Source: an uncultured Planctomycetota bacterium (lineage in GTDB: Bacteria; Planctomycetota; Planctomycetia; Pirellulales; Lacipirellulaceae). From it: DNA of 64,000 nucleotides. The notes under the pieces were generated by a model that did no database searches, was not told the origin of the DNA, and was given only the letters and a program-made list of their open reading frames with translations. This document shows, in pieces, positions 24,136 to 40,152 of the stretch. Each line of letters opens with the position of its first letter. The stretch's first letter is position 1. The stretch spans positions 288,001 through 352,000 of the forward strand of contig CAVRBU010000004.1 of assembly GCA_963719315.1 (NCBI GenBank). The letters are read 5' to 3'. The position numbers and the translations under genes are program-made.

Positions 24136-24364
24136 GTTTGCCATGTGATCGCGCAAAATCGAGCTTGGTCCGTGCCGATCTGATACAGGCCGAGTACCGA
24201 GGCGCGCAAAGCCGGCAAGCCGGGTGTGACGGTGGCAGCGGCATGGCGCGGTTCTCCCAAGGTGGGAGCACAAAACGGAATCTTCCGTTTTCGCCTCTGA
24301 GAAACACCGCATCGCAGAACGCTCAGCCGGTAGGAATTGCGCTTGTTTCGGTGGGAATCTTACG

Positions 24365-24408
24365 AATGGAGCCGAAGGGACTCGAACCCTCGACATCTAG
24401 CTTGCAAA
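24365..24408 (-). repeat. Perfect 44-bp copy of tRNA-Ala 3' half (att between islands A and B)
   Basis: AATGGAGCC...CATCTAGCTTGCAAA is identical to 40078-40121 and ends in the anticodon loop. Confidence 0.95.
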
Positions 24409-24697
24409 TTTGGTCATGCACAGCCGTATACTAAGAGTTTTATTCGGCAATTCCTGTATCAAACGCTGATTGTACCAGCTTGCAATTCCATTGCAAAGCG
24501 TTGCAATTTATTCCGATGAATTGCGGTAGTTCAAGAGATGGGCTGCGCAAAGCGGTAGTTTACCGTTTTGGCTTTTCCAGAATTCACGCCGCACAGCCCC
24601 ACAGCCTTCCGATCCGATCCAGCGGAAGATAACTCACCCGCTGCCGTCGGAGCGTGTTACGTGACGACGTGGTCGGCCTCAGAGTATCATCGGCGCC

Positions 24698-24886
24698 ATG
24701 GCCCAAGATCGACGCCAAGAATTGATCCAACTGCTGGCCGACATCGACCAGCAGATCACCGAAGCCCAGCGGGTCATGGTTGACTGCCCAGAGGACAAGA
24801 TCATTCTCGCGGCGTCCGCCCAACTGATTGAGCTACGGGCCGCCCTAGAGCGGGTTGAGACACTATTTAGCGAAAGTCGGGATTAG
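24698..24886 (+). CDS. Small helical hypothetical protein (paralog family 1)
   Basis: 62 aa amphipathic helices; TATCAT lies 7 nt before the ATG; similar to ORFs at 25789 and 29369. Confidence 0.6.
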   Translation: MAQDRRQELIQLLADIDQQITEAQRVMVDCPEDKIILAASAQLIELRAALERVETLFSESRD

Positions 24887-25055
24887 CAGTCGCACAGGAT
24901 GCCCCAGGAATTGCGCCGACAGTTCATTGCGACATTGGGTAGGCCTGACCTACTGCGGCCTTTATTCTCCCCTGGTGGATATCTGGCATTAGGTGACAAT
25001 GTGGCTAACAGCCGCTTCGGCTACGTTGGATCATTCATCGAAAGGATTCGTTTCA

Positions 25056-25361
25056 ATGTCCATAGCATCCGCCGAGACGAACGCAGTCAGAGATTTGCAG
25101 CAGTTCGTTAACGACATTTGCGCATCGAATGGCGGCACAGTCTCGCACTCCGATACCGACTTTATAGCACGCATACCCGCCAGCATCGTGAGCCGTGCCG
25201 ATGTGCACAACACATTCCTGCAACTGCATCCCGAGCATGAGAAGTTCCGTAAACGGCTTTCGAGCGTGGGCATGAGCAATCCCCACCTTTGCGACGAGCT
25301 GTGGCAGGCGGCGCAAGCCCGAGCTCACAAAAACCATCCTGCCGCTCGCCCCATCCGTTAA
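25056..25361 (+). CDS. Hypothetical protein (paralog family 2)
   Basis: AAGGA RBS; shares VSRAD...F..LHPEH..FR with the ORF at 26557. Confidence 0.7.
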   Translation: MSIASAETNAVRDLQQFVNDICASNGGTVSHSDTDFIARIPASIVSRADVHNTFLQLHPEHEKFRKRLSSVGMSNPHLCDELWQAAQARAHKNHPAARPIR

Positions 25362-25493
25362 TCGCTGTAATTAAGGCAGCATCGACGTTAAGCTCTCCCT
25401 TTGCCGTAAATTGGTCCCTCTGGGTTGGCGGAGATGAGCGTCAAAGGACCGATAGTTGATACGTGGGAGTGGCGGAATGCTATACTGGTTTCC

Positions 25494-25688
25494 ATGTCAA
25501 TTAACTTGCGTTGCTCATTCTGTAACGAATCCGAACAACAAACCGGGCCCCTGCTGGCGAAGATGGATGCCAGCGTAAAGCGCAGCCCTATTCGCATCTG
25601 CAAAGGCTGTGCTAAATTGGCGATCGATGTCATCGATCGGGAAGTCCTGCGACGTGCTGGCGAACGCCCGCGACTCCGTGTGATATAA
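25494..25688 (+). CDS. Stand-alone ClpX C4-type zinc finger protein
   Basis: LRCSFCNES...PLL...IRICKGCAKLAIDVI matches the ClpX N-terminal zinc-binding domain pattern. Confidence 0.7.
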   Translation: MSINLRCSFCNESEQQTGPLLAKMDASVKRSPIRICKGCAKLAIDVIDREVLRRAGERPRLRVI

Positions 25689-25788
25689 CTTTCAGTCCCA
25701 CAATCGCGTCGAACGAGCGCCGATGGGTTGGACCGATGGTTGTTGTGTCCGGTTTTGGCCGCGTCAGCCGCCCCGCTATACTGGCGCC

Positions 25789-25965
25789 ATGGCCTTAGAC
25801 CGACTCAATCGCTTGGTCGCATTACCGGCCGAACTTGAGCAGACGGAGACCCAGGCTGAACACTTGGAAGTTGAAGGGATCGATACAGACATCAATGATC
25901 AATAGCGAGAATTGGTAGCTGCCGCTCGCGTCAAGATCGAAGGGGAGCTGCAATCCCAACAATGA
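25789..25965 (+). pseudogene. Paralog family 1 member with in-frame TAG at 25903-25905
   Basis: Read-through gives MALDRLNRLVALPAELEQTETQAE...DT...Q*RELVAAARVKIEGEL, which aligns with the 29369 ORF. Confidence 0.55.
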
Positions 25966-25989
25966 AACATGTGAACTGTGACTCGCAAG

Positions 25990-26223
25990 TCATTTGCTTT
26001 CACCTTTCTCTACAAGCTTTGCCACTAGGTCGTCGCGATTGTCGGCGTCATACGCATACTGCCGCCCGTCGGCGCTCACGATCACCCGCACACCGGGATG
26101 TTCGCCCTCAACTTCTGCAATGCCGGGTATGCTGAAATCTTCTTTTGATTCCACTCGAATGTTCACCGCGTTTGGATGACATACCTTTGCGGCAATTCGG
26201 ATGTCGTGTTTTGATGCGGGCAT
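25990..26223 (-). CDS. Hypothetical protein
   Basis: 77 aa with a strong AAGGAG RBS and protein-like composition. Confidence 0.55.
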   Translation of the reverse strand: MPASKHDIRIAAKVCHPNAVNIRVESKEDFSIPGIAEVEGEHPGVRVIVSADGRQYAYDADNRDDLVAKLVEKGESK

Positions 26224-26556
26224 TTTTATTCTCCTTGTGAGATGGGCTGCGGAACTACATCCTCAAGCCTATCGTAGTCGAACTCCGCCATTTCGTATTT
26301 AATCGTGAGAAATCCCAAATAAAACCCGGCTGCTGCCCCAACGGCGTCCTGTTCGTCAAGTTGAGTTAATGCTCGCTGATGCGTGGGGCCGCACATTCCG
26401 GGGTGACGCCCACTACTTCCCGAAAATCGGTACTTCAGGATGCCCCAGGAAATGCGCCGAAGGGTCGGGTCGATGGTTGATACCTGCCCTCTGGCGGTTT
26501 TTTGGCGTCGTGGTATCGTTGAGTGCGGGGCCGTACTATCGAACGGAGGCATTGCA

Positions 26557-26850
26557 ATGTCGGAAATGATTGATCGTCAGCGAGCCATTCACGATTACAT
26601 GGCTTTTGTATCTGATCATCGCGCCTCGAAGGCCCGCCACGTTCCTCCCACTGCCGAAGATTTGCCGCCAGTCGAGTCAATTGAAGTGAGTCGCGCGGAC
26701 GCTATGAAAGCCTTTTTTGAGTTACACCCAGAGCACGGTATTTTCCGCCTCGACGTTTCACACGTGTTTGAAGATCAACAGTTGTTTTCGTTCTCAAAAG
26801 AACGCTGGGAGAAAACAACGCGCAAACTTGCCAAGGCCAAGCCCAAGTAG
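26557..26850 (+). CDS. Hypothetical protein (paralog family 2)
   Basis: GGAGG RBS; homologous to the 25056 ORF. Confidence 0.7.
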   Translation: MSEMIDRQRAIHDYMAFVSDHRASKARHVPPTAEDLPPVESIEVSRADAMKAFFELHPEHGIFRLDVSHVFEDQQLFSFSKERWEKTTRKLAKAKPK

Positions 26851-26993
26851 AGTGCCATGCTAATTGAATTGTTGGCGCCGCCAAGGCGGGCCCCACGGCC
26901 AAATGCCTCAGGCCGCCCACGCTACATGATGGCGTGGGCTCTTGCTGTGGGCGTTCGTCAAGCAAATGATCCGACCGGAAGTCCGGCCATCAT

Positions 26994-27041
26994 GCCCGCC
27001 GGCTCGCGACTTCCGACGGGCTAATCGAATTGTAAAGGACC
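26994..27041 (-). repeat. Repeat A copy 1 (boxA-like sequence plus hairpin)
   Basis: GCCCGCCGGCTCGCGACTTCCGACGGGC...AATTGTAAAGGAC; other copies at 29276-29324 and 33945-33992. Confidence 0.85.
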
Positions 27042-27320
27042 ATTCTGCCGCGTTTCCTTCGCGGCCGCAGGGGTTGCGCCGACGGGTCGGGTCGATGGTT
27101 GATGCGCTGGGTTTTCCAGGCGCGCCAAAAACGGTAGTTTACCGCGTGTCTTTGATTCTCATCGCGGCCAATTGTTCCGGGCAATCCTCTAGGCCATTGG
27201 ATTTAGTATCTGTCTACTGCAATACTTTTCAATTATTCTGGAGGTTCCCGGGAGGGCTGTGCGGCTTATCTTTCGTTCGACGGGATTTTGACCGTTGCCA
27301 ACTTTCGACAATTCGAAAAT

Positions 27321-27980
27321 ATGGCGAAGACCAAAGCCGAGTTAGAGCTCGACGATCAGCGGCATCAAAAGTTGATGACCGACGCCCGCGCTGCACTGCA
27401 GCGAGAGTCTTATTTTGACGCAGTTCAAATGGCCGTCTCTGCGCTGCAGCACGTTGACGGAATGATGCAATATGACCGACGGTGGGGTAGCAAGTCTGAG
27501 TTCGAAACAATTGACAGCGTCGCGCTCGTGCTTCGCTATGCACCACTGATATTCGATAGTGACAGCTTGGATCAACTCGCGTCGCTGCTCAAGTCCCAGC
27601 GCCGCATCGACAAGAACTCCGCCGTGGATATCGCGTCAGATCTGGAGGCTTCTGTTTCCACGATGTGGGATGCACATCGTTTGTGGTCCCATTTGGAATG
27701 CGAACACGAGGTTCGCCAGGATGAACTTCGTCGTAAATTCGGCGGTGACCAGGACAAGTGGAGGTGGATTGCAGAAACTTGGGAGCGTATGGGTCTACTT
27801 TGCCGTGTACCAGAAGGCGGTTCATATCGGCTTTCCCTAGTTTCCCGACTAGAAACGCGTGTTCGTGGTAAATGTGCATCATGCGGTGTTACGGGCCAGG
27901 CTGACAAATTTCACTTGTTCCAAGAGATTCAGTGCCCGAAATGTAAAGCTTCCGGCTTTTGGGTGATCATGTTGAGTTGA
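27321..27980 (+). CDS. Hypothetical protein: helical N-terminus, possible winged helix, C-terminal Zn ribbon
   Basis: CASC...CPKC; ends 1 bp before the DUF4041 gene. Confidence 0.75.
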   Translation: MAKTKAELELDDQRHQKLMTDARAALQRESYFDAVQMAVSALQHVDGMMQYDRRWGSKSEFETIDSVALVLRYAPLIFDSDSLDQLASLLKSQRRIDKNSAVDIASDLEASVSTMWDAHRLWSHLECEHEVRQDELRRKFGGDQDKWRWIAETWERMGLLCRVPEGGSYRLSLVSRLETRVRGKCASCGVTGQADKFHLFQEIQCPKCKASGFWVIMLS

Positions 27981-27981
27981 A

Positions 27982-29265
27982 TTGACGCTCTTCGAAAGGT
28001 TTGTTGCAGTGTCTTATTTCATCGTGCTAATTGCTGGCATGGCCGGAGGGGCGCTATGTATGTTTTTCGCGCTTCAAAGAAAGCGCGATGCGATTGAAGT
28101 GTTGCGTCGGCGTCAAACGCAAGAAGCAGAACACCTAAAGAGCACTGCGTCACTTCTGGCGGATCGCGAGGCCCAATTTGGCAAAGAAGTCGATCAATTT
28201 CGCACCGCACAGAACGAGTTTCAGGAAGGCGTTATTTCCTACAAGAACTTGACTGACGAGAATCTAATTCTCAAACGAGACCTAAAGAACTTCGCCGTAT
28301 CTCTCCGCAAGACGAAACTCGATCAACTGACACAACAAAAAGCCCAGGAGACGCTAAATAGTCGGGTTCAAGTTCTAGGCAAGCGATACTTAAAGGACAG
28401 TGTAAAGTGGATTGGTGCATCGCTAAATGTAAATAATTTCGTGGCGTGCAAACAGCGCCTACAAAATAACATCGAACAGTTGCGCGGCGTCGGCTTTGAG
28501 GTAACAGCTAGTGAAGAGGCAGGCTACATCGTTGATTTACGCACCGAATATGAACTCCTGGTGCGGGCAGCATTCGAACGGGAGGAGCAGGCCAGAATCA
28601 AATCTCAAATTCGAGAGGAACAAAAGCTCGAACGGGAACTCCAGCTCGAACGGGAACGGATTGATCGCGAGAAAAAGTTAATTGAAGCAGCATTGGCCAA
28701 AGCAATGGCCGAAGCGAAAGATCAATACAGTGCAGAAGTCGAAAGCTTGAAGGCCAAATTGGCAGAGGCAGAGGCCAATCAGCGTGCTATCTCTCAAGCA
28801 CAAATAACAAAGGCTGGCTATATCTATGTTATCTCGAATATTGGATCATTTGGCGAAGGCGTCTTCAAGGTTGGCATGACGCGACGTTTCGAGCCGATAG
28901 AACGCGTACATGAATTAAGTGATGCGTCCGTTCCATTTCCTTTCGATATTCACATGATGATTTCGTGCGATAACGCGCCGGCACTTGAAAATGCCTTACA
29001 CAAAGCGCTCGTGAAGCAACAGGTCAACAAGATGAATCCTCGGAAGGAGTTTTTCAAGACGGACATTCACACAATTGCTGAACTCGTAAAAGAGCACCAT
29101 GGCGAAGTGCACTATGTGGTGGATGCGGAAGCGCCTCAATACAGGCAGAGCATTGCGATGTCCGACGAGGACATGAAGTTCATTGGGCAAGTTTTCGACG
29201 AGGCGGAAGAGGACAGTCCAGCCTTTGACGGGGAAGCATCGCACGAAATCGCATCATCCTATTGA
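27982..29265 (+). CDS. Membrane-anchored DUF4041 + T5orf172/GIY-YIG nuclease-domain protein
   Basis: N-terminal TM helix, coiled coil, EEQARIKSQIREE, RAISQAQITKAGYIYVISNIGSFGEGVFKVGMTRR, LSDASVPFPFDIH, VNKMNPRKEFF. Confidence 0.9.
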   Translation: MTLFERFVAVSYFIVLIAGMAGGALCMFFALQRKRDAIEVLRRRQTQEAEHLKSTASLLADREAQFGKEVDQFRTAQNEFQEGVISYKNLTDENLILKRDLKNFAVSLRKTKLDQLTQQKAQETLNSRVQVLGKRYLKDSVKWIGASLNVNNFVACKQRLQNNIEQLRGVGFEVTASEEAGYIVDLRTEYELLVRAAFEREEQARIKSQIREEQKLERELQLERERIDREKKLIEAALAKAMAEAKDQYSAEVESLKAKLAEAEANQRAISQAQITKAGYIYVISNIGSFGEGVFKVGMTRRFEPIERVHELSDASVPFPFDIHMMISCDNAPALENALHKALVKQQVNKMNPRKEFFKTDIHTIAELVKEHHGEVHYVVDAEAPQYRQSIAMSDEDMKFIGQVFDEAEEDSPAFDGEASHEIASSY

Positions 29266-29275
29266 GGGCCAGTAC

Positions 29276-29324
29276 GCCCGCCGGCTCGCGACTTCCGACG
29301 GGCCATTTCGAGTTGTAAAAGAAC
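29276..29324 (-). repeat. Repeat A copy 2
   Basis: Same 28-bp hairpin as copy 1, followed by TTGTAAAAGAAC. Confidence 0.85.
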
Positions 29325-29368
29325 GTGGCCGGCGCTTCCAACCGCTCCATCCTCGCTATACTGCGACC

Positions 29369-29560
29369 ATGCACCCCGACTACCGCAAAGCGCTGGTCGC
29401 TCACCTTGCCCGCCTCGACCGCATGGAAAGCGAGGCCGATGACATTCTGAGCGGCCCTGCTGATACATCGCTCGTGGCCCAAGCAGAAGAACTCCGCGAA
29501 CTCATCGTCGAGATGCGAGCGAGCGTTGAGGAGAAGCTGGACCGGATTACGGAGGCGTAG
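29369..29560 (+). CDS. Small helical hypothetical protein (paralog family 1)
   Basis: 63 aa; TATACT lies 6 nt before the ATG; stop codon directly precedes SRAP. Confidence 0.65.
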   Translation: MHPDYRKALVAHLARLDRMESEADDILSGPADTSLVAQAEELRELIVEMRASVEEKLDRITEA

Positions 29561-29562
29561 CA

Positions 29563-30219
29563 ATGTGCGGACGATTCACCTTGCGCCTCCGCTGTCGGTG
29601 CTAATCAAGCAGTTCGCGATCGAGTTGACGGCCGACCAGCAACGGCTGCCATTCGAGCCGCGCTACAACATCCCGCCGACCGTCGATATTCCGGCCATCA
29701 GATTAACGGATGGCGCACGACGGATCGCATTCATGCGTTGGGGCCTGCTGCCATCGTGGACGAAAGACATCAAGCGAGCGCCCCTGCTGAATAACGCTCG
29801 CGCTGAAACAGCCGTCGAAAAGCCTTCGTTTCGGTCTGCGTTCAAGTCCCGCCGTTGCCTCATTCCGTCCGATGGTTTCTTCGAGTGGAAGCGCAGAAGG
29901 TAAGGCTAAGCAGCCCTACGATTTTCGGCGGCCGGATGAGCGGCCGTTTGCATTCGCCGGTCTCTGGGAACAGTGGAATAAGATTGAATCTTGTACGATC
30001 ATTACGACGGAAGCCAATGAAGTGATGTCGCCAATTCACGACCGGATGCCGGTTATACTTAGCCGAAACGACTACGCCGTGTGGCTCGACCCAGCGGCGA
30101 CAGAACTGGGGAAGCTGCTGACGCCATACCCGGCGGACGAATTGATATGCTATCCAGTGAACCCCGTGGTCAACAACGCTCGCAACCAAGGAGCGCAGTG
30201 CATCGAGCCGGTTCAATGA
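29563..30219 (+). CDS. SOS response-associated peptidase (SRAP/HMCES/YedK family); two frameshifts at about 29585 and 29895
   Basis: MCGRFTL start, PRYNIPPT, RWGLLPSW, NARAET, RRCLIPSDGFFEW, FAGLWE, IHDRMPVIL. Confidence 0.88.
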
Positions 30220-30672
30220 GATTCCGCAAGCTGCGAATCGCGTGGTCGGTGGCGTGGGGCATACTCGCCGTGTTGCTCTGTGTGTTGTGGGTGCGGAGTT
30301 ACAAAATAGCCGACATCGTGTCGGGGCATATCACGACTTTCAAAACCTTCAGTATAACGTCGGACAAAGGGCGGTTTCTCGCATGGCTTAACACGGCTGC
30401 CCCTATCCTTCGTCCTCCTGCTCATTGGCACATGACTTACGTTCCTGGTGTTGTGAGCTGGAAACTTTGGACGTATGGCAAGTTGCCTGTTCCTTATGCC
30501 GGTTGGTACATCCATGCACCTCAAGGGCTGTTCATATTGTTGGCAGCCGCGACTCGCCATAACTCCGTGGATATCGTGGCCTAACCGCTTCAGCCTCCGA
30601 ACTTTGCTAATCGCCATGACGCTAATCGCGGTGGTGATGGGGGCGGCTGCTATGATGTTGAGGGGAAGCTGA
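30216..30672 (+). CDS. Planctomycete membrane protein (MRFRKLRIAWS...RFSLRTLL type); frameshift at about 30550
   Basis: N-terminal TM ...CVLWVRSY; C-terminal PW...RFSLRTLLIAMTLIAVVMG in a second frame. Confidence 0.65.
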
Positions 30673-30708
30673 GGGAGGCGCGATAGGATGGTGGCAACTG
30701 ATAGCTCC

Positions 30709-31179
30709 ATGACTGACACAACTCGCGCTCGCTGGTTTTCGTTTAGGCTGCGTACGCTGCTGGCAGTAATGACCGGCTGCGCCTTCGTTGCTTTTGTTGC
30801 GCAATGGATACTTTCACAAGCGGGCGGCGTGCGAACTGCCATCCTGGTCATACCGTGGGCGATTGGATCATTCGCCGGAATATATCTGGCTGTCAGATCC
30901 AACCGCAGCACACTACTTTGGGCGATGGGAGGCGGTGTACTAGGTTGCCTGCTTTGCCCCGGAACTCTCGTGGTATTCCTTTACCTCAATGACATGAATG
31001 GAGTTAGGAGCTTGTCCACTTTGTGGACGCAACTGGCGATTGCTGTCTGCGGTAGCTGGTTGCTGGCCGCTTTTATCGGCACTACGCGAGAAGGACTATT
31101 TTTTTGGCGAAAGTGCAGGCTAGTCGATCGTGATTCACGGCACATCCCACACACTAACTTACCACCGCCCACGTACTGA
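30709..31179 (+). CDS. Membrane protein with planctomycete FSFRLRTLL N-terminal motif
   Basis: RWFSFRLRTLLAVMT plus about four hydrophobic helices. Confidence 0.65.
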   Translation: MTDTTRARWFSFRLRTLLAVMTGCAFVAFVAQWILSQAGGVRTAILVIPWAIGSFAGIYLAVRSNRSTLLWAMGGGVLGCLLCPGTLVVFLYLNDMNGVRSLSTLWTQLAIAVCGSWLLAAFIGTTREGLFFWRKCRLVDRDSRHIPHTNLPPPTY

Positions 31180-31302
31180 ATCGGAACCGATCGCGAGCAA
31201 CCAACTTGCTTTTTGAAGGTTGGCTTTAGTAAGCTGGGCTTATACAGGCATTTCCCAACTAATAACTAGTTCGTCGCCTCCAACGCATCAGGAACCACCG
31301 CA

Positions 31303-31773
31303 ATGGCAAGCTCGTTTTGGAAACTCTCAATGGCCGGCGACGATTTCAAAAGCATTCTCGAGGTGCTGGACTGGATTCGACGCGGAGTTGTCCTCGTCCA
31401 CAAGGACACGCGTGCCAAAGGGACGTCCCAAACTTCCCAAGGCCAATACTTCACTGAGCTGGAACGCCTTGGTGATTACTTTTACCTTTGTCACGGCAAC
31501 CATGAACCCGCAGTTCTCTTCCTGGGCCAATTTACAGGGCCACCAAATCTCTTCTGTGAACGCGGGCACGGTTGGGCGGAACGATCGTTTCGATGGATTC
31601 GCACTTCGATCTCAACCAAAAACTACAACGGCCAAGCGAAATGGTGGGCTCCGAATCACAACAGCACATTTACGAAAATCCCCGAATCAGATCTCGATGA
31701 ATTTGAATCGGGTATATTGGCACCGTATTTCGACATGCACCTTGCCGACTTTAGGATCGACTATGAGTCGTAG
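31303..31773 (+). CDS. Hypothetical protein, possibly EVE/PUA-like (resembles N-terminal domains of McrB-type GTPases)
   Basis: FWKLS start, GDYFYLCHG, LGQF, WWAPN.NSTF, ILAPYF. The family link is from memory only. Confidence 0.55.
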   Translation: MASSFWKLSMAGDDFKSILEVLDWIRRGVVLVHKDTRAKGTSQTSQGQYFTELERLGDYFYLCHGNHEPAVLFLGQFTGPPNLFCERGHGWAERSFRWIRTSISTKNYNGQAKWWAPNHNSTFTKIPESDLDEFESGILAPYFDMHLADFRIDYES

Positions 31774-32159
31774 TACTATGATGGATGGCGAATCAAACGG
31801 CCGATGAACTAAACGGTGAGCCCCGGACAGCGCCGGCCGATGACGACGGTGGAGCTGACGCTAAAAGTCCAACGGCGCGGATGCCGTCCGCTCGACCGCG
31901 CTGAGGACGTGGAGCATGCCATACGGAGTGTGCTTCAATATCATCGGCGGCCGTTTCGGAAGGATGATAAGGGGCGGTGGGAAGTGGCAGAAAACTCAAC
32001 GAAAGCCAATTAAACCTCCCTTACCCCGTTAGGGGCGCGCCTTTTTTCGAATTCTGCCACATTATCTATTGCGATTAGCCTGCCCCGACGCCAAATATGG
32101 GAGTATCTGCTCTCATTTGAAAGGCACATATACAATTGTATGTGCTGGCGGGGGTTTGC

Positions 32160-32947
32160 ATGGCGGCACAGCCGAAGTACCTTTTCACAGCGATTGTTGA
32201 TCCTGATCCGCTCGGATTGAGCCAGGCTCACAAGCCGTGGGTAAAGGGTTATATTGCGGCTCGCCATAAATGGGACCGCTCGCTGGAGAGTCCATATTGC
32301 ATTGCCAACGAAGCGATTTGTGCAGAGCTGGGGCGGTACATCGGTCTTCCGATACCGCCTTACGCGATAACACGAACATTTAACAACGAGTTCAGCGACC
32401 GCGATTTGGTGTCGTTCCTTGATTTTAATTGGGGCAGGCGCAATCCGAGTCCAGTCGAACCCGACTACTGTTTGCAATCACTTCCACAAATTTGTGCAGG
32501 CATCGTGGTTTTTGATGTTCTAATTGCTAACCCGGATCGTCACGACGAAAACCTCGCCGTGGATCGAACGGATACGCCAAAGGACATGCGAGTATACGAC
32601 CACGATGTCGCGTTATTCGGAAACGTAGCAGGCAAGGGAATTCAAAGACTGAATGAGATGCAATCGCGACTCGGAATAACTGGCAGCACAATGACCGGCG
32701 GCAATCGCCACGTATTTTTGGACTCAATCACCACGAACGAACATTTTGAACCTGGGTTATTCGAATTGAAGAGATACCACACGGTTTTATTGAGCGGCTA
32801 TGTAATAGAGCAAAAGAATTCGGCATTACCCAAGAAGAAGCGGATCGTGCGCACACGTTCCTCTACAGGCGAAAGCTTGATCTTCGGGGAATTCTAAACA
32901 GACACAAGGCAGACTTTCCTGGAATTACGAATTGGCCATCGATATGA
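32160..32947 (+). CDS. HipA-like kinase; frameshift at about 32752
   Basis: ANEAICAELGRYIGLPIP, FDVLIANPDRHDENL, YDHD. The corrected frame ends ...NWPSI* with an ATGA overlap. Confidence 0.8.
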
Positions 32948-33741
32948 GCCACCCACCACGATTTTTGATCGTCAAATACGTTCCCGACTGGAACGAATGG
33001 AGCCTCGCAACATTGGAGTAATCTTGTGGAGCGAAGGCTACGTTGCTGCGCGGTTTTTCGGTGAAGGGGAAGATGGTTCGAGGCTACGCCCCCCGCCGTT
33101 TATTGAGAGGAGAAATCGCGTTGTGTATGGTGATTGGGTAAGGTACTGGCATCGTAATTTGGCAAAACCAAAACTAAACGGTATTGTCCGTGAGAGCGTG
33201 CAATTTGTCGATGCTGTTTGCTCAAAGTCTCGCGATAACTACATCGTTGTTAAGGGTGGACAACTCTTAACGACTCTTACCCCCGATGAATGCCGCGAGG
33301 CTGTAGATGAATTATTTGATCGGTTTGTGGGCGATGCGCCCTTCTGTAAAGCTTCGGCAAGCCTGCGACCTGGCTATTAACAACGCCTTAACAAAAGAAC
33401 AGTACGCCAAAAACTTTCTGTTTGAATGTCGCGTAGCTGGTAAAGTAACACACACATTTAAGTTTAATTACGCCGGCGTACAGCTAGGCAACCTGCCTCG
33501 CGCACTTTTTCAGCGGGTTGATCTAGATCAAGACGGGAGCGTGAATAGCGCAACGCTTATGTTTGAATCGGCAACAAAAAAAAACATTAGCAAAGATCAA
33601 TGCGGGGCTCTCATTGTTGATGGCACCTCAAACCACCAAAGCGCCTGGGATATGCTAGGCTCGTTTGCAACGTTTGTGGACGTGTCCAATCTGAATGAAG
33701 CGCGATATACGATTCGCCAAATGTCTGGACTTAACGGCTAA
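32944..33741 (+). CDS. DUF3037 domain protein; frameshifts at about 32995 and 33345
   Basis: FLIVKYVPD..MEPRNIGVIL N-terminal motif; translationally coupled to the kinase; C-terminal HTFKFNY. Confidence 0.7.
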
Positions 33742-33817
33742 CCAGGTGATAGCACCAATGTCTTGGCCGGAATGAAAAAAGCTCGCCTATCTCTGAAGTT
33801 CGCACGCTCTTCCTCTT

Positions 33818-33912
33818 GGAGAGCGGCTCGCGCCTTGGGGGCGTATCAGCCTTATACTCTACGATAGGTACCGCGCCCGCGGTTGGGTTCGATTCCCCCT
33901 CTCTCTCTGCTA
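33818..33912 (+). ncRNA. tRNA-like gene with 9/3 fold (allo-tRNA-like), probable anticodon UAU, partly degenerate
   Basis: Acceptor GGAGAGCGG/CCTCTCTCT, D-stem GCGCC/GGCGT, loop CTTATAC, long variable arm ACCGC/GCGGT, T-arm GGG-TTCGATT-CCC, 3' end GCTA. Confidence 0.65.
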
Positions 33913-33944
33913 AGCACGACCTTGCGCTGCAGCGGACCTCGGCC

Positions 33945-33992
33945 GCCGCCGGCTCGCAACTTCCGACGGGCTAATTCAAATTGTCAATGAAC
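33945..33992 (-). repeat. Repeat A copy 3
   Basis: GCCGCCGGCTCGCAACTTCCGACGGGCTAATTCAAATTGTCAATGAAC. Confidence 0.85.
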
Positions 33993-34011
33993 ACCGGCCG
34001 CGTTGGCTGTC

Positions 34012-34218
34012 CTCGCTCAGTTGGGACGACGTTCGCGGCCTTTGGCTCGCGTTCGTTTGGTACTGCTCGTAACGAACCTCTGTTCCATCAGCCGGTCGGA
34101 AAACTCTAGTCCGCCATCCAACTGTGTGCAGTGCGCGAATACGTCATCGCCACCGACTTCAGGACGGATGAAAAAATAGCCTTTATCGAGTCGCAAACTA
34201 ACTACGTGCGTTTCGCAT
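34012..34218 (-). pseudogene. Cold-shock domain protein, frameshifted (absent from the ORF track)
   Basis: Minus strand reads VVSLRLDKGYFFIRPEVGGDDVFAHCTQL...KAANVVP, i.e. RNP1 KGY.FI and RNP2 DVF.H. Confidence 0.65.
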
Positions 34219-35309
34219 GACGTTTTCCGTTGGGCTAATGCACGATCGCGATCGATGCATAGCTAACTCCATCGCTAACAGCATCGGGCAATCTTCCAGT
34301 TTCGCCGCAATCCGCAAGTCGTCGGGCACGTGCTTGTATTTGCGCTAGGGTGAAATGCTCGCGGCCAGTGAAATCTTATCGCTGACACGATGGCTAACAG
34401 ACGGCGACGCTTCTTCGCTGAAAACTAACTCTCTTGCGCAATGCGTCAAATAGTTGTGTGCGAGTTTTTCTATCGCGTCATGTAAATCTGGATCAACGTT
34501 TCATTGGTTTGCGCATGGCTTCTGCTGATCGCTCGAATTGATCTACGCTGCGCGCGAATCGACGCTAACTTCGTGGATCATGTAGCGGCTGCTGATGCTT
34601 ATCGTTACGCTGTTGCACGACGCACGCGATTAAGGTTCGAACTCGCGCTAAGCTATCGACGAAAGCATCTGTCTGGCGTGCGGGACATAATGACTTCGTG
34701 CATTGCTAAGGCTGTAAAAACGTCGCTACTATCTGAGCGAATGCGGAGTTCGATGTCAGCATGCTGGGGATCGAAAGCATCTCTTGGAGGATTTTCGTGA
34801 TTCGTCGGTGCTTTCGAGCGTACAACTAGACGACGGGCGCTCGCGCGCGGTTTGTGATGAGAGTCTTTGGACGTGCGCTGTCGTCCAGCAGATTAACGTA
34901 GTGGCTTCCTCGCGCAGTTGCTCGGCTCAGCGGTGCTGACGCTGATCCTGCTCAATCTCCATGAGTGTCAGCTCGCACGATTCCATTCGCGTAAGGCCAC
35001 ACGGGCTTGGCTCGTCAGCTATTTCCGGCCGGCGATGGCGGTCACTTCCATCCGCTCAAGCAACTCGGAGATTGGTGATGTTTGATTTCATGCTACTTGC
35101 TCTCTTTGTTGATGTTGTGTTAGTGTTTGATTGTTGGGAGTGATATAAGATACGTGTTTAGTTTATGCGTGTTTATTTGATGTGTATGTAGTTTTTTAAT
35201 GCTTGTATGTTTCGCTGTATGTGCGTAGTTTATATGTTAATTGATAGAAGATAGCGTTTGGTGTTAATGTTTGTTATGGTTTAGTTTTCTCACTGTAGTA
35301 TCGCTCTGG

Positions 35310-35525
35310 TTATATTACATTTCTAATTTTTGGTATCTCTACGTTAACTTTGAACGGCTCACGGCACGATCGGCAGATTGCAAGCCGGGTTCGCGAGCCG
35401 TCGCCGTTCGCCACGCTGCGAACAGTTGTATGTTCCGGGCTTCCGCAATGGGCGCACGTCACCGCATCGACCGTCACGATCGGGGCCGCTGTCCAGTCAA
35501 TGCGATGTGAGGCCGGGCCATTCAT
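35310..35525 (-). CDS. Ogr/Delta-like zinc finger protein
   Basis: CAHCGS...TVRS...RLAICRSCREPF; overlaps the TerS stop. Confidence 0.6.
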   Translation of the reverse strand: MNGPASHRIDWTAAPIVTVDAVTCAHCGSPEHTTVRSVANGDGSRTRLAICRSCREPFKVNVEIPKIRNVI

Positions 35526-35998
35526 CGAAGCAAGTCCTCTAGTTCGCGGTCACTATCCGCGAAAAGATTACGCCGCCGAACGCCGCTCGTTGTCGATGTC
35601 TGCGGGTCGATGCGAAGGCTAGAGCGTGATGTCGGCGTCAAACCGAACTTCTGGCCGATGGTTGTAATTTGCTCGATGCACTTGGATTCGATCATCAAGG
35701 CCGGATGTCGCCGGCCATCGAGAATGAGGCCGTCACGGCCGAGTATCTCGCGGGCCTCCGCTAGCCGCTGGTGAGCGTGGCAGTAGCACGCCAACGCCGA
35801 ACTATCCAAGGGACACAACAATCCCTCGATGTCGCTCAACTCGCCAACAACTTCGTCCCAAACTTTGGCCGCGATGGGGGCCAACCATTCAGGCTTGCGG
35901 GGTTCGCCGGCACAGGTGGCCAGCGGAATTCCGTCTTGCGTTTCGTCGTAACTTCCATCCATCAGTTTTGCTCCGATTGGTGCTCTGTTCCGTCCCAT
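35522..35998 (-). CDS. Phage terminase small subunit, P27 family
   Basis: PEWLAPIAAKVW, LDSSALACYC, HPAL, FGLTPTSRSSL; GGAGG RBS. Confidence 0.88.
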   Translation of the reverse strand: MGRNRAPIGAKLMDGSYDETQDGIPLATCAGEPRKPEWLAPIAAKVWDEVVGELSDIEGLLCPLDSSALACYCHAHQRLAEAREILGRDGLILDGRRHPALMIESKCIEQITTIGQKFGLTPTSRSSLRIDPQTSTTSGVRRRNLFADSDRELEDLLR

Positions 35999-36028
35999 TG
36001 ATCCTCCAAGTAAAAGCTATTTTTCGGA

Positions 36029-36450
36029 TTAAAATACGACACACTGTCGTGATGGTTTCCGTGATCGCGAGACCCGGAAAAATCCTTCCCCCGGTGGGGT
36101 GTTACTGCTAGCCGCTGATTCCCTTGCGGTTTTTCTCGAATGGCAGGACCAGCACAGTGCGCGGAGATTCGCCCAGCAATACAGCAACTCCTCATTGCCT
36201 TCGTGCGGTGTTACGTGATCCACGCACTCAGCCGCTTTAGTAATGCCGTGCTCGACACACTCCTCGCACAATGGGTGCGCTGCTAGGTAGGGCTTCTGGT
36301 AGTGGTCGTCCATCTGCGGGTATATCCACGCTGGCTACGCGATGGGCGGGTGTCTGGTGTCCGTTGCTTGGCGTGGATCGCACAACGGCTGGAACCGTCT
36401 GTCAGTCTCAGGCAGCCGGGCGACGAGCATATTGACTTGGCTCTGTTCAT
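36029..36450 (-). CDS. Phage HNH endonuclease (HK97 gp74-like); frameshift at about 36300
   Basis: N-terminal CSSPGC...RCAIH, RGY...W, HPLCEEC, VDHVTPHEG, NLRALCWSCHSRKT. Confidence 0.85.
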
Positions 36451-36574
36451 TGCGTCACCATCCCACGTCCGTCACGTTGCGGTACGCTTCGAGCTCGCGG
36501 TTGAACCAGTAAAGAGCCAGCGCAGGATAGTCACGGGTGCTGTCGCCTTGCGGCGCTTGTGCTGTCCGCCGAGG

Positions 36575-37590
36575 TCACGCACCGAGGGCCTTGAGCTTCT
36601 CGGCGCATTGGCGTTTGCGTTCCTCGATGTCGATGGTCGATAGGTCGCTGCAATCCGGTTCTTCTGCATTGGTTTTCTCCTCATGTTCAAAAAAAACGTC
36701 CACAGCGGACACCGCGACAAGCGGTTCCGCTGTTCCTTTAAGAGTTCCATTAAGAGTTCCTTTAAGAGTTCCCTTAAGTAGATGGCTCATTTCTGCACCC
36801 CCCCTGGTCCATTTCTGCCCCCCGTGGCTCATTTTTGCGCGGGTCGTGGCTCACTTTTAGGCCACGGTGAAGGGTTACCAAAGGGTTAGCTAACTGTTCG
36901 CAGTGGCTCATTTCTGCGCTTCGGTGGATTAGCTCGTTTGGCACCTGGAAGTCGGGGTTGAGATACAGCGTGTCGGCCATCGTTCGGCAGCGCCCGTAGT
37001 CGTCGCGATACCACGCGGCCGGGTCCACCAAGAGCAGCCCACGATCCACGAGTTTCGCCTTGGCAATCGAGATCGAACGCTTGGATAATCCGCTATCCTT
37101 GGCTAGCGTCGCCACTGGATATTGCAGCCGGTTGTAAACGTCATCGCCTTCCGCGGAGCCATTGGTGATCGCATCATTCAATGAGTCCCTGGACACGACG
37201 AGGGCGAAGACAGCACGCTCGGCCCAACTCGGCAACATCTGGGCCGCCCATCGTGGAAGGATCGCAAACTTAGCGCCGTGGTTTGCGCTCAGATACCCCT
37301 GCGACACGTAGTACGTTGCTGTGCGCCGCCGCTGCCGCCCTTTGTGTTTCAAGAGTACGGCCTTGAGGAGCTGTTCAACGTGCCGCTTAACGGTCGGACG
37401 GGGCACGCACGCCTTAGCAGCTATCACTGCCAGGCTAGCAAACGTCTCGCCGCTGTGCTTGGCGAGTGCACGGTACGCCGCGAAGGTCTGTGCTGCTGGT
37501 CCGACCATCTGCATCACTTCCCGTGGAAGTCCTCAGCGCGTCATAGCGCTTAACTTCCGACAACGGCGTTGTTGTGGTATCCTGACTCAC
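36575..37590 (-). CDS. Winged-helix replication initiator-like protein (frameshifts at about 37530 and 36830)
   Basis: Two HTH segments (FASLAVIAAKACVPRPTVKRHVEQL; YPVATLAKDSGLSKRSISIAKAKL). Iterons lie inside the 3' half. Confidence 0.65.
36732..36917. promoter_or_regulatory. Putative replication origin: five iterons plus four tandem AT-rich 12-mers
   Basis: TGGCTCATTTCTGC-like units at 36783, 36805, 36825, 36847 and 36904; GTTCCHTTAAGW x4 at 36732-36779. Confidence 0.7.
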
Positions 37591-37647
37591 TGAACTTCCA
37601 TGTAGCCCGGCGGTTCGATTGGCGTTGGGCCGCCGGGCATTTAATTC

Positions 37648-37926
37648 TTACACGCCCAGTTCCGCGGCGCGCTTTTCTGCGCACTCGATTGACCTTTGAC
37701 GTTGGCGGGGAGTTTCGCCGTTCACGATCGGCACGCCGTTGATCGCTGCGACCCATCGCTCGTATGCGGGCGACGTCGTGAACTTCTTGCCGCCGATGCT
37801 GAAGGATTCGAGCACGTGCCCCTTGCAGCCTCGCAAGGACCAACGCCAAACGGTTGAGAGATGGACGCCTTCACGGCGAGCCAGAGCGGAGAATGAGATG
37901 CGGGGCTCAGATAGAATCGAACTCAT
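37648..37926 (-). CDS. DUF1580 HTH protein (excisionase/AlpA-like)
   Basis: VHLSTVWRWSLRGCKG..LES..IGG...TT, C-terminal AAELGV. Confidence 0.8.
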   Translation of the reverse strand: MSSILSEPRISFSALARREGVHLSTVWRWSLRGCKGHVLESFSIGGKKFTTSPAYERWVAAINGVPIVNGETPRQRQRSIECAEKRAAELGV

Positions 37927-38044
37927 AGCAATCCTCGCAATGAAAGTAAGTGACTACTTCCATTGTCGAGTAACTGCTATTGAACGCGATTCAATTCAGC
38001 GTCTCACGCGGACAGATGTACTTATTTCCGTGGAAGAATGTACT

Positions 38045-38617
38045 TCATTCCGCAATGCCACGTTTTCGCAACTCCTCACTAATTGTTTTGCTACTGACTA
38101 CTGCTCCGCCGCGGTGCCGAACGACATCTTCCGTGACACACTTCAACCAATCCTTTTTGCCGGTGTGCTTTGCATACGCTACTTGCAAAATAAGGTCGGG
38201 GACACCACTCAATTTTGTCTTTCCCTCCTTAGTAAGACGCCTTTGTGTGTGATATCGCGACAGCTCACGATGCGCTTTGTGCGCGCCCATTCCCCACTGC
38301 CAAATCCGCTCTACTTCGTGGAGATGAGCGTCAAAGGTAAAAGCCATCCGAATTACCTTAGCCATATCTCCGGCTTTGCGAGCGGCTTCTAACTGATAAA
38401 GACATTGAAGCGCAATAACTGTATGGGTTGTTTCATACGATGTCTGACCCATGAGATACGATCGCTTGCCCTTGAATTCGAGCATCTCATCGGTTTTCTT
38501 TTTCGTCACATAGGGTGCAATCTTTTCCTCCAGAATCTCACGCCACATACGAATATGTTGTTCATCTGAAACAGCCGCCGGGTCATTCGCCCGAATATCC
38601 ACACATCTGTAGTCCAT
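38045..38617 (-). CDS. Hypothetical protein
   Basis: 190 aa with AAGGA RBS, between integrase and xis; possible C-terminal HTH. Confidence 0.65.
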   Translation of the reverse strand: MDYRCVDIRANDPAAVSDEQHIRMWREILEEKIAPYVTKKKTDEMLEFKGKRSYLMGQTSYETTHTVIALQCLYQLEAARKAGDMAKVIRMAFTFDAHLHEVERIWQWGMGAHKAHRELSRYHTQRRLTKEGKTKLSGVPDLILQVAYAKHTGKKDWLKCVTEDVVRHRGGAVVSSKTISEELRKRGIAE

Positions 38618-38730
38618 GGCATCATCCTTTCAGCCGGGCCGATCGGCCGGCGCCGTGGCGATGATGTTTCCACAGCGGCCGGCCAATCGTGTGCGGTAAA
38701 TTACTCCGCGACCCGAACAATAAATAAATT

Positions 38731-39960
38731 CTATCCGATCATCTTCGCTACTTCGATTGCTCGTTGCCGGTCCTGCTCGGCATAAATGCCGGTGGTGTTT
38801 AGCTGCGAATGTCCAAGCAGCGTTTTCGCCGCCTCGATACCCGCTTCGCGGCGCACGCGCAGTCGCCATCGCGTGCCGCAACTGATTGGGCGACCAGCGG
38901 TGCTCACGCTCCCACTTGGCGACGGCTTCCGGATCGTCGGCAAGATCATCGGGAACCGGAAACGCCTTATCACTGGCGCGACGGACGGCAACCAGATAGC
39001 TTTGCGGGGTGTACCGCTCGCCTACTTGCCGCTTGGTACGGGGAACCTTGGAACCGGGCCGGTTGCCACAACTCAGCGGAGTCTTACGGGCCAGGTGCAA
39101 TTCGGCGCGCCGCTTGGCTTCGCTATCGGCTGGCGAAAAGCAGAACGCCTCACTGTCCCGCAAGAGATAGGGCCGCAAGATTTCCTGCGCCCTGGGGCCG
39201 ATGTAGACGATCCGCTCTTGCTCCCGATTCTGGTTTTTGTGTTGGGTCGGCTGGTACTGCCAAACGTCGGCGGTGCGGTCGATGTCCGCGGGCCGCATGA
39301 TACACAACTCGCCGGGGCGCATGCCCGTCATCTGCTGCAATTCCACCATCGACCGAACTATCGGCGGTAGGTAGGGCAGGGTGGCATCAACGAGCTTCGT
39401 ATCGGCCGGCTTGACCCGCTTGTTCTCTCGGGCCGCCGTATGTCCGCGGCGGAGACCGGGAACCATCGCCAATGCCTGCGGAACGTCGGGCGGGATCATC
39501 CCCTCACTCACGCCCCAACGGAACACGCGGCCGATCCGTTGGACGCTGGCGTTGATATGCTTTCGGGAGTGGCCCAGGGCGAGATACTTTTCCCGAATTG
39601 CTTTCAGGTGAAGGGGGCCGAACTCGCGGGCGGGGAGACGACCGTACAACTCGCGGAGCGGCCGGAGCGCGTGCCGCATGTTGGCACACTCGCCACGGTT
39701 GCCGGGGCCGTAGTACGCCTTGGCGTAATCCAGGTAGGCGACAACCAGTTCGACCACGGAGACGACGTGCTCAGGCACGCCGTAGGATGGACGACCGGCC
39801 CGACGCCAGCCATTCCGTGATCCGGCGGTCGTATTCGATCCGGCTAGCCTTGGTGCCATGAGGACCGAGGTAGTGATCGCGGCCGTTGACCGTGACGACG
39901 GCCTGCCCGGTGGCTTTGTGCTTTGCGATACTTGGGGACGGATTCTATAAGACGCGGCAT
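38731..39960 (-). CDS. Tyrosine recombinase/integrase (frameshifts at about 39922, 39795 and 38865)
   Basis: MPRL...YRKHKATGQAVV...YLGPHG N-terminus, TGMRPGEL, HKN, PNQLRH, LLGH...TGIYAE. Confidence 0.9.
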
Positions 39961-39983
39961 AGTGCGAACCTCCAAAAAATGCC

Positions 39984-40003
39984 AAAACGGTAATTACCGT
40001 TTT
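39984..40003. promoter_or_regulatory. Perfect 20-bp palindrome between att and integrase start
   Basis: AAAACGGTAATTACCGTTTT; related sites at 24553, 27126, 24272 and 6030. Confidence 0.7.
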
Positions 40004-40079
40004 GCGCTTCGAGGAAACGCCGCACTGCCGAACGTCGGCAGGTAACTTAAACTCTTGTTTCGGTGGTACTTACAACCAA

Positions 40080-40152
40080 TGGAGCCGAAGGGACTCGAAC
40101 CCTCGACATCTAGCTTGCAAAGCTAGCGCTCTCCCAACTGAGCTACGGCCCC
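40080..40152 (-). tRNA. tRNA-Ala(TGC)
   Basis: GGGGCCGTAGCTCAGTTGGGAGAGCGCTAGCTT-TGC-AAGCTAGATGTCGAGGGTTCGAGTCCCTTCGGCTCCA; G3:U70. Confidence 0.97.

Follow-up and report, generated by a model that had tools for sequence, protein, structure and literature searches.

The closest described relatives of the RNA gene treated here, which occupies positions 33818 to 33912 of a 64-kb stretch of Planctomycetota DNA (hereafter the window), are the allo-tRNAs. In the accessible portions of their original description (PMC5389517), the group with a UAU anticodon has an 8/4 fold and a length of about 84 nt and derives from Acidobacteria-type soil data. The (9/3) allo-tRNAs bear other anticodons, e.g. UCU, CCU, UAA and CAA, and some of them insert serine or alanine in Escherichia coli; in the same portions none with UAU is recorded. 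A review from 2020 repeats, in its accessible part, the picture of 2017. The preliminary description of the window had characterised allo-tRNAs as RNAs with 8/4 or 9/3 folds, long variable arms and often a UAU anticodon, located near toxin-antitoxin genes. Set beside the available text of PMC5389517 this characterisation is essentially right, except that the UAU group is 8/4, whereas the anticodons of the 9/3 species are for Arg or Leu or read UAA. A second type of described system concerns the two genes in front of the RNA, a HipA-like kinase and a DUF3037-like partner. As far as the available parts of the two papers go, such a pair constitutes DS-6/HipAD, a stand-alone, toxin-antitoxin-like anti-phage system (PMC13092281), and at the Retron-Sda1 locus (PDC-M66) the pair defends alone, deletion of the adjacent non-coding RNA having changed nothing (PMC12548924).

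Our reading of the locus is that the RNA belongs to a family of (9/3) allo-tRNA(UAU)-type RNAs, that this family originated as part of a transposon-like unit, that the window copy is a relic, that no three-part system is formed with the kinase pair and, least certain of all, that the family has a decoding role. To this package as a whole we assign a probability of about 0.6. Its first element, the membership of the window RNA in the family, is nearly certain from the sequence comparisons. The RNA, GGAGAGCGG-CUC-GCGCC-UUGGG-GGCGU-A-UCAGC-CUUAUAC-UCUAC-GAUAGGU-ACCGC-GCCC-GCGGU-U-GGG-UUCGAUU-CCC-CCUCUCUCU-cu-GCUA, starts 76 nt past the stop of the DUF3037-like open reading frame (ORF) at 33741, on the same strand. 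It possesses the attributes of an allo-tRNA, namely a 12-bp branch split 9/3, a long variable arm, discriminator G73 and UAU in a 7-nt loop, and all features listed when it was first noticed as a 9/3 allo-tRNA-like gene with a long variable arm and UAU are present. A covariance model (R2) was built from 44 homologs, with the window copy left out of the building set. In the 64-kb window it matched exactly positions 33818-33912 with 77.4 bits (E 4.7e-15), a significant score in the very type of search that had been suggested as a check; the second-best match was a genuine tRNA-Ala with 20.5 bits.

The expectation that standard scanners would miss the RNA was borne out. ARAGORN reported only three canonical tRNAs in the window (tRNA-Ala, tRNA-Ile and tRNA-Cys) and passed over the RNA at 33818, and an Rfam scan of the whole window at gathering thresholds returned only the same three. 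The Rfam tRNA-Sec model (RF01852) gave the window RNA 19.5 bits (E 0.44) versus a gathering score of 47; a second copy from the same genome (26.0 bits) and a copy from genome G012 (36.9 bits) were also below threshold. With a UAU anticodon instead of UCA and a score short of 47 bits, the RNA falls outside tRNA-Sec. It is likewise no canonical tRNA-Ile(UAU), for which a 7/5 fold, A73 and an RF00005 score above gathering would be expected and in place of which it shows a discriminator G. The minimum free energy structure of the lone window sequence is not the cloverleaf, and its energy is no better than that of shuffled sequences (z -0.10). The support for the cloverleaf therefore comes from comparison, not from thermodynamics.

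As in the allo-tRNA(UAU) group, to the extent that this group is set out in the available text, the family displays a cloverleaf of tRNA-Sec type in which acceptor and T stem form a 12-bp branch, the variable arm is long and the anticodon loop reads CUUAUAA. An acceptor beginning with GGAGAG..., a discriminator G, stem-weakening mismatches, a location near toxin-antitoxin or transposon genes and sub-threshold matches to the tRNA-Sec model are also common to both. In contrast to that group, the present family is 9/3, measures 89-99 nt and occurs in Planctomycetota; its connector is 3 nt and its D loop 5 nt long, and 7 extra bases precede the variable arm. With the published (9/3) allo-tRNAs it shares the 9-bp acceptor stacked on a GGG-TTCGATT-CCC T arm as well as the discriminator G, but their anticodons, in the text at hand, are Arg-, Leu- or ochre-reading, whereas that of this family is UAU. 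Three family-specific 11-13-mers had 0 occurrences in the sequence tables of Mukai et al. (PMC5389517). The 9/3 geometry and the absence of these motifs indicate a new 9/3 UAU variant rather than a member of the published subgroup. Neither a partnership with a ribbon-helix-helix (RHH) protein and an IS1-type transposase nor a link to AUA codons, both treated below, appears in the accessible portions of PMC5389517, and the literature searched contained no co-mention of 'allo-tRNA' with 'transposase' or 'Planctomycet'.

The second copy, on contig C6 of the same genome, is 76% identical to the window RNA, the BLAST match being limited to the RNA. It is the cleaner of the two: the 9/3 register is perfect, the anticodon stem is GCGA/UCGC, the loop reads UU-UAU-GA and G-CUA follows the acceptor. 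A covariance model built from these two copies and a hand-drawn structure (R1) located the RNA at four places in the genome of the window, i.e. three copies besides that of the window: a complete unit on contig C11, the copy on C6 with its transposase in pieces, and a truncated RNA on C1. Of 101 related Planctomycetota genomes, R1 matched 42, often at two to six places in each; among 150 genomes of the phylum from outside the order, one gave a match under stricter filters (E <= 1e-6). Among the genomes searched, the family appears to be mostly confined to one order of Planctomycetota.

Two alignments were prepared, A3 with 34 and A4 with 44 sequences, the latter being used for the analysis of covariation. 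In A4, 92.1% of the cells are paired, and changes on both sides were found in 22 of the 27 pairs (133 cells); none of 500 shuffles reached the observed value, and slid partners gave at most 31 cells. All five helices are supported, with both-side changes in 6/9 pairs of the acceptor, 2/3 of the T stem and 5/5 of the variable stem. The D stem of 5 bp is paired in 99.5% of cells and closes a D loop of 5 nt (UUGGU/UUGGG), versus the four of the tRNA-Sec-like tetraloop. U.G pairs are frequent, reaching 23 of 44 sequences at one D-stem pair, which indicates that the tRNA-sense strand is the strand under selection. The C7.U mismatch of the acceptor is itself conserved, being present in 29 of the 44 sequences, and 23 of them have the innermost pair of the anticodon stem open. 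The anticodon loop is CUUAUAA or a near variant, with a TTATA core in 33 of the 34 sequences of A3; an exception to UAU is locus L025, whose loop is TTTACAC (UAC). The acceptor is followed by a discriminator G in nearly all homologs, as it is in the window copy. The cloverleaf is upheld by compensatory change, and UAU in a canonical 7-nt loop is almost invariant. A display of GAU in the extra arm was considered and dropped; the family consensus there is CGUAGG and only the window copy reads GAU.

The genetic neighbourhood was surveyed by clustering the ORFs within 1.5 kb of 32 RNA copies. At 20 of the 32 loci a small RHH-type ORF runs towards the RNA on the opposite strand and terminates between +88 and +97, its stop abutting or overlapping the last bases of the RNA; Pfam assigned 5 of 21 such small convergent ORFs as NikA-like and 5 of 21 as RHH_1. 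A transposase ORF of about 320 amino acids, or fragments of one, lies on the strand of the RNA at most 1.5 kb downstream in 23 of 32 loci. All four proteins tested matched DDE_Tnp_IS1 (PF03400) with 35-42 bits against a cut-off of 24.1, and 25 of 26 intact transposase genes begin 283-422 nt past the 3' end of the RNA. Homology between copies, within and across genomes, extends from the first base of the RNA to about +1430 to +1480, near the stop of the transposase. We take these limits to delineate an intact unit of about 1.45 kb that would consist of the RNA (its first ~95 nt), the convergent RHH gene, a structured leader and an IS1-family DDE transposase gene on the strand of the RNA. Upstream of the RNA copies, genes of toxin-antitoxin type are often encountered (Panacea, XRE-HTH, PIN, HicA/HicB and DUF433), as judged from Pfam searches with 15 proteins and 86 of 172 upstream ORFs, many of the scanned ORFs being without a family. 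The nearest upstream ORF shares the orientation of the RNA at 21 of 44 loci and has the reverse one at 23. Co-transcription with upstream genes was rejected on these counts, the lack of an orientation bias arguing against an operon with them.

Some further observations concern the unit and its RNA. Over the ~150 nt that precede the transposase start the leader carries conserved hairpins, the stem sequences of which differ between copies (CCCCG...CGGGG; GGCTTTCGCC...GGCGAAAGCC). An example is L054:7315-7718 (-), with the same place being occupied in other units and with AT-rich repeated motifs by the RHH start. In genome G008, two copies that have diverged elsewhere are 99% identical over 125 nt of the leader; a comparison of the conserved leader with Rfam gave no match. 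Two 9/3-like RNAs (L145:1469-1563(-) and L120:1981-2069(-)) lie just upstream of metagenome transposases on the opposite strand. One of them has a UAC loop and an encoded CCA, the other a CUUAUAA loop and a transposase with 6 ATA among 23 Ile codons. Locus L036 (G043:C12) holds three RNA copies, 7910-8007(-), 9579-9674(-) and 13839-13934(+), two of which are inverted with their 5' ends facing a 4.2-kb stretch, an arrangement resembling a composite transposon. Genomes G067, G004 and G033 each hold two RNA copies in direct orientation, 1.4-5 kb apart. Within the 30 nt preceding RNA copies (-30 to -1), a CCGYTCTCY-like motif complementary to the 5' strand of the acceptor occurs 4-20 nt upstream of the RNA, e.g. 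at L047, L037, L070, L071, L062 and L082 and in the window. Pairing over 9/9 positions was found in 7 of 48 loci versus 1.8% of shuffles, a modest excess; this motif could give rise to a hairpin in the leader, in competition with the acceptor stem.

In host ORFs of at least 400 amino acids AUA accounts for 2.69 per 1000 codons and 5.6% of the Ile codons, as compared to 10.55 per 1000 codons in 26 BLAST-verified RNA-linked transposase genes. Within a YSPAT-I-I motif of the transposase the first Ile is encoded by ATA in 18 of 18 cases, the other 8 of the 26 sequences having ATG, and the second Ile by ATA in 13 of 13 Ile codons. A third site has ATA in 14 of 24, and 12 other Ile-rich columns have 0 ATA. 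As a control, synonymous variation is present at every one of the 46 further residues, Met and Trp aside, that are invariant among those 18 sequences. Among 80 metagenome transposase homologs added to the comparison, the RNA stood in its canonical place in only two, both with ATA ATA, and 59 genes with at least 700 nt of upstream sequence formed the RNA-less set. At the key column, the 28 RNA-linked genes have ATA (20) or ATG (8), with ATC and ATT at 0, as against ATA in 2, ATG in 0, ATC in 10 and ATT in 2 of the 59 RNA-less genes, the rest of which encode Val, Cys, Phe or Leu there. With the three sites taken together, one or more ATA codons are present in 28/28 RNA-linked versus 5/59 RNA-less genes. 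The linked transposase genes keep the rarest Ile codon of the host, AUA, at fixed positions, where RNA-less relatives use AUC or AUU.

These codons suggest that the RNA may serve the element as a tRNA of its own for reading AUA, or act at such codons as a mimic of a tRNA, and that it would tune the amount of active transposase made. We consider an AUA-decoding role of the family possible, at somewhat less than even odds. In Streptomyces, bldA encodes a tRNA-Leu for UUA, a rare-codon tRNA that gates specific genes. The likeness would lie in a dedicated tRNA for the rarest codon of the genome, with targets that keep this codon at fixed places. The difference is that here tRNA and target would reside on one mobile unit and that the tRNA is non-canonical and perhaps charged with a 'wrong' amino acid.

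The host genome encodes TilS and three CAU tRNAs and, according to ARAGORN, no UAU tRNA; with TilS and the CAU tRNAs it can already read AUA. Since its tRNA genes do not encode CCA, the GCTA end of the RNA is no objection to a tRNA nature, and the CTA after G73 is accounted for by the overlapping stop codon of the RHH gene. The acceptor of the host tRNA-Ser(GCU), GGAGAGG/CCTCTCC with G73, is copied in the acceptor of the RNA, GGAGAG.../...CUCUCC with G73. By the reasoning of Mukai et al., as given in the available parts of PMC5389517, this Ser-type acceptor with G73 predicts charging with serine; given their long extra arm as well, the RNAs of the family may carry Ser rather than Ile. In that case the RNA would be a missense brake and not a supplier. 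The fuller proposal is that of a mobile element with its own non-canonical tRNA controlling its own transposase, either as a scarce decoder or by bringing Ser to essential hydrophobic positions, with relics that could perturb AUA decoding of the host or serve intact elements in trans. We put it forward tentatively and with still less confidence than the decoding role as such.

Several results weigh against this interpretation. The model to which A3 and A4 were fitted had its start in a hand-drawn structure on two sequences. In the accessible text of PMC5389517, six 8/4 allo-tRNA(UAU) variants were inactive in translation in E. coli and two were toxic. The RNA-less genes L123 and L142 have ATA at the key site, and L025, with its UAC loop, has a transposase that keeps ATA ATA, so that a test for co-change of anticodon and codon yields no support. 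The RNA-linked transposases may be essentially one clade, in which case the contrast between genes with and without the RNA does not consist of independent events and the synonymous control within the clade carries more weight. Should the RNA be charged with serine, it counts that Ser occurs at the key column in 0 of the 59 RNA-less homologs, which have Val, Cys, Ile, Phe or Leu there. With regard to the unit, no terminal inverted repeat was found: inverted matches to the 30-mer at the RNA end, sought between +1000 and +2200 in the 24 copies with sufficient downstream sequence, reached at most 18/30, and we hence speak of a unit rather than of a proven classical insertion sequence. The DNA upstream is unrelated between RNA copies and the neighbouring genes point either way; a search for a promoter of the RNA found none. 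Lastly, the frameshifts and the extra CT in the window, used below as signs of decay, could be assembly errors.

The features of the window are compiled in Table 1.

Table 1 Features of the window RNA, its neighbouring gene pair and the surrounding island (window coordinates unless a contig is named)
Feature	Position	Strand	Basis or remark
(9/3) allo-tRNA(UAU)-like RNA gene, slightly decayed solo copy	33818..33912	+	sequence, model R2, genome paralog, family covariation
Acceptor stem, 9 bp	5' strand GGAGAGCGG 33818-33826; 3' strand 33898-33906		8/9 paired, C7.U mismatch
D arm	33830-33844		stem GCGCC/GGCGU, 5 bp
Anticodon arm	33846-33862		loop CU-UAU-AC, anticodon TAT at 33853-33855
Variable arm	33870-33883		stem ACCGC/GCGGU, 5 bp
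T arm	33885-33897		GGG-TTCGATT-CCC, 3/3 pairs
Inserted CT	33907-33908		
GCTA end	33909-33912		G then CTA
Anti-acceptor motif, window example	33804-33812		
RHH 3'-end remnant, about 30 nt	33913..33941	-	alignment of copies 1 and 2; BLASTN of the intact element reaches 33941
IS1-type transposase remnant, 17 codons (LTNAHSKSPRHHVAWAA)	26911..26961	-	tblastn 82% identity, E 2e-5
47-nt repeat (CCGCCGGCTCGCGACTTCCGACGGGC...)	33946..33992, 26996-27042, 29278-29324; contig C2 113747-113802	.	
Integrated island, 15.7 kb	24362..40121	.	47-nt direct repeats 24362-24408 and 40075-40121, 98% identical
Integrase	38630-39985	-	Pfam Phage_integrase
HipA-like kinase ORF, 253 amino acids	32136..32897	+	Pfam HipA_2 27.1 bits vs cut-off 27
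DUF3037-like partner, broken	32941..33741	+	two overlapping ORFs 32997-33380 and 33307-33741

The window copy is probably a relic rather than a working gene. In the R2 alignment its anticodon stem retains 2 of the 5 family pairs; three are broken, one of which is commonly open in the family. The 3' strand of the RNA is a low-complexity CT run. Past the RNA the minus strand is full of stops, leaving no open RHH frame, and BLAST with the intact element detected no RHH or transposase match downstream beyond the remnant of ~30 nt. The transposase remnant lies 6.9 kb from the RNA on the other strand. It is the loss of the RHH and transposase genes and of two further anticodon-stem pairs, together with the two inserted bases, that makes a relic the most likely state, and such a copy would most likely have little or no activity. 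The 47-nt repeat adjoins both remnants, with one copy next to that of the transposase and another right after that of the RHH gene, where the RHH/transposase part stops. The repeats that bound the island are copies of the 3' half of a tRNA-Ala (40080-40152), and further island genes were identified by Pfam as HNH, small terminase (Terminase_4), T5orf172 and SRAP (SOS-response-associated peptidase). The gene for the latter (29526-30219) is broken up into two overlapping ORFs, one matching the profile over positions 17-111 and the other over 112-213, by a frameshift or an assembly error, as with the DUF3037-like gene. On contig C2, 3 kb from the copy of the 47-nt repeat there, ARAGORN reported a tRNA-Ser(GGA) of non-canonical look (116625-116707, 83 nt). 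It has an 8-9-bp acceptor (GGAGGGTAA.../...ATGCCCTCC) and a GGG-TTCGAGT-CCC T arm and resembles the allo-tRNA-Ser type.

The kinase ORF was matched by the PADLOC models PDC-M03A (E 7.8e-8) and PDC-M66A (E 1e-4). It is 41% identical to the kinase of genome G069 over 172 amino acids, with the last ~45 not matching this homolog, and carries DRHDEN and DHD motifs, which we take to be catalytic. Both ORFs of the partner match one intact protein of 272 amino acids in G069, and the first ~20 codons of the partner gene lie in a third frame (tblastn). Neither Pfam nor PADLOC called DUF3037 in these two ORFs. A more distant homolog in genome G084 was placed among DUF3037 clusters in the ESM Atlas (0.96; 29 of 30 matches in the set), and the DUF3037 kinship of the window gene is drawn from this match together with weak BLAST links. 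A search of the genome contigs with the G069 DUF3037-like protein returned only its own record. As in HipAD/DS-6 (PDC-M66, PDC-M03), the kinase is followed by its DUF3037-like partner in a mobile island. The match is distant, however, with the kinase at the Pfam threshold and the partner uncalled and frameshifted, and the published systems, in the parts available, need no RNA. A DUF3037-like homolog is present in 9 of 401 genomes of the order. The scan beside other such pairs that the preliminary description had called for showed the RNA within 1.5 kb in two of these genomes, that of the window and G084, and in none of the other seven, including G069 with the closest homologous pair. From the side of the RNA, 2 of the 48 loci compared, again the window and G084, have an upstream DUF3037-like gene. 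In G084, a pair of kinase fragment and DUF3037-like gene lies 30 nt upstream of the RNA, which is accompanied there by the usual RHH and transposase genes and hence belongs to that unit. Behind the pair in G069, in convergent orientation, lies a transposase of another family, IS1595-type (L057:2255-3217(-); PF12762, 133.8 bits).

A kinase, DUF3037 protein and RNA forming one three-part cassette, with the RNA as decoy, antitoxin or mistranslating tRNA, had been the central proposal for this locus, and we now regard it as very improbable. The single strand and the short gaps between the three genes in the window speak for it, as do the distant pair in G084 and the fact that RNA beside 2 of 9 pairs is far above random placement in a genome of ~5.5 Mb; HipA-family kinases, moreover, act on the translation apparatus (PMC13092281, available part). 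Set against this are the seven of nine genomes in which no RNA lies within 1.5 kb of the DUF3037-like homolog and the 46 of 48 RNA loci with other neighbours (the toxin-antitoxin-type genes named above, metabolic genes and unknowns). The upstream genes show no orientation bias, the G084 RNA comes with its own RHH and transposase, and the DUF3037-like gene of the window is frameshifted. The published pairs, as seen in the accessible parts of both papers, defend alone and deletion of the Retron-Sda1 RNA was without effect (PMC13092281, PMC12548924). The excess of 2/9 fits a shared residence among mobile toxin-antitoxin and defence genes and not a dedicated three-part system, and the window copy would adjoin the kinase pair in the way such elements sit beside toxin-antitoxin or defence genes in mobile islands. 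That the cloverleaf arose by chance, or is what remains of an ordinary tRNA (for instance a piece of the island's att site), can practically be dismissed. It is true that the island is integrated in a tRNA-Ala, the 3' half of which it repeats over 47 nt, and that neither the folding energy nor the CT run favours the cloverleaf. The att repeat, however, lies elsewhere (24362-24408), and the full-length match to an independently built family model and the compensatory changes among dozens of homologs have already refuted this explanation.

A more serious competitor, though in our judgement an unlikely one, is a tRNA-shaped element that does not decode and has a structural or regulatory task in the mobile unit, the AUA codons serving, for example, as a translational pause. 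It might act as a signal for processing or stability, an RNA of toxic or antitoxic effect checked by the RHH protein, a decoy for tRNA-binding enzymes or a site of recombination or end recognition. Homology that begins exactly at the 5' end of the RNA, as expected for an element boundary, would suit such a role, and so would the RHH stop that abuts the RNA end in 20 of 32 loci. The frequently kept C7.U mismatch, the often open innermost pair of the anticodon stem, the anti-acceptor motif with full pairing in a subset of loci and the ATA codons retained at L025 despite its UAC loop point in the same direction. On the other hand, no terminal inverted repeat matching the RNA end was found. The near-invariant UAU within an anticodon loop of canonical form (U33, A37), together with a T loop that is canonical too and the GG of the D loop, corresponds to the needs of a decoder and exceeds those of a mere structure, and the position-specific synonymous conservation of AUA tracks the RNA.

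For the window itself, the outcome is a probable relic in a decaying island and no three-part kinase system. Beyond it, dozens of Planctomycetota genomes carry unannotated tRNA-like genes overlooked by standard scanners. An RNA with a fixed genetic partner, an IS1-type transposase whose gene keeps exactly the codon that the RNA would read, offers a testable handle on the function of this family. If the proposed role is true, the family would represent transposon self-regulation by a private, oddly shaped tRNA, possibly through deliberate missense decoding, and would be a source of orthogonal tRNA scaffolds.

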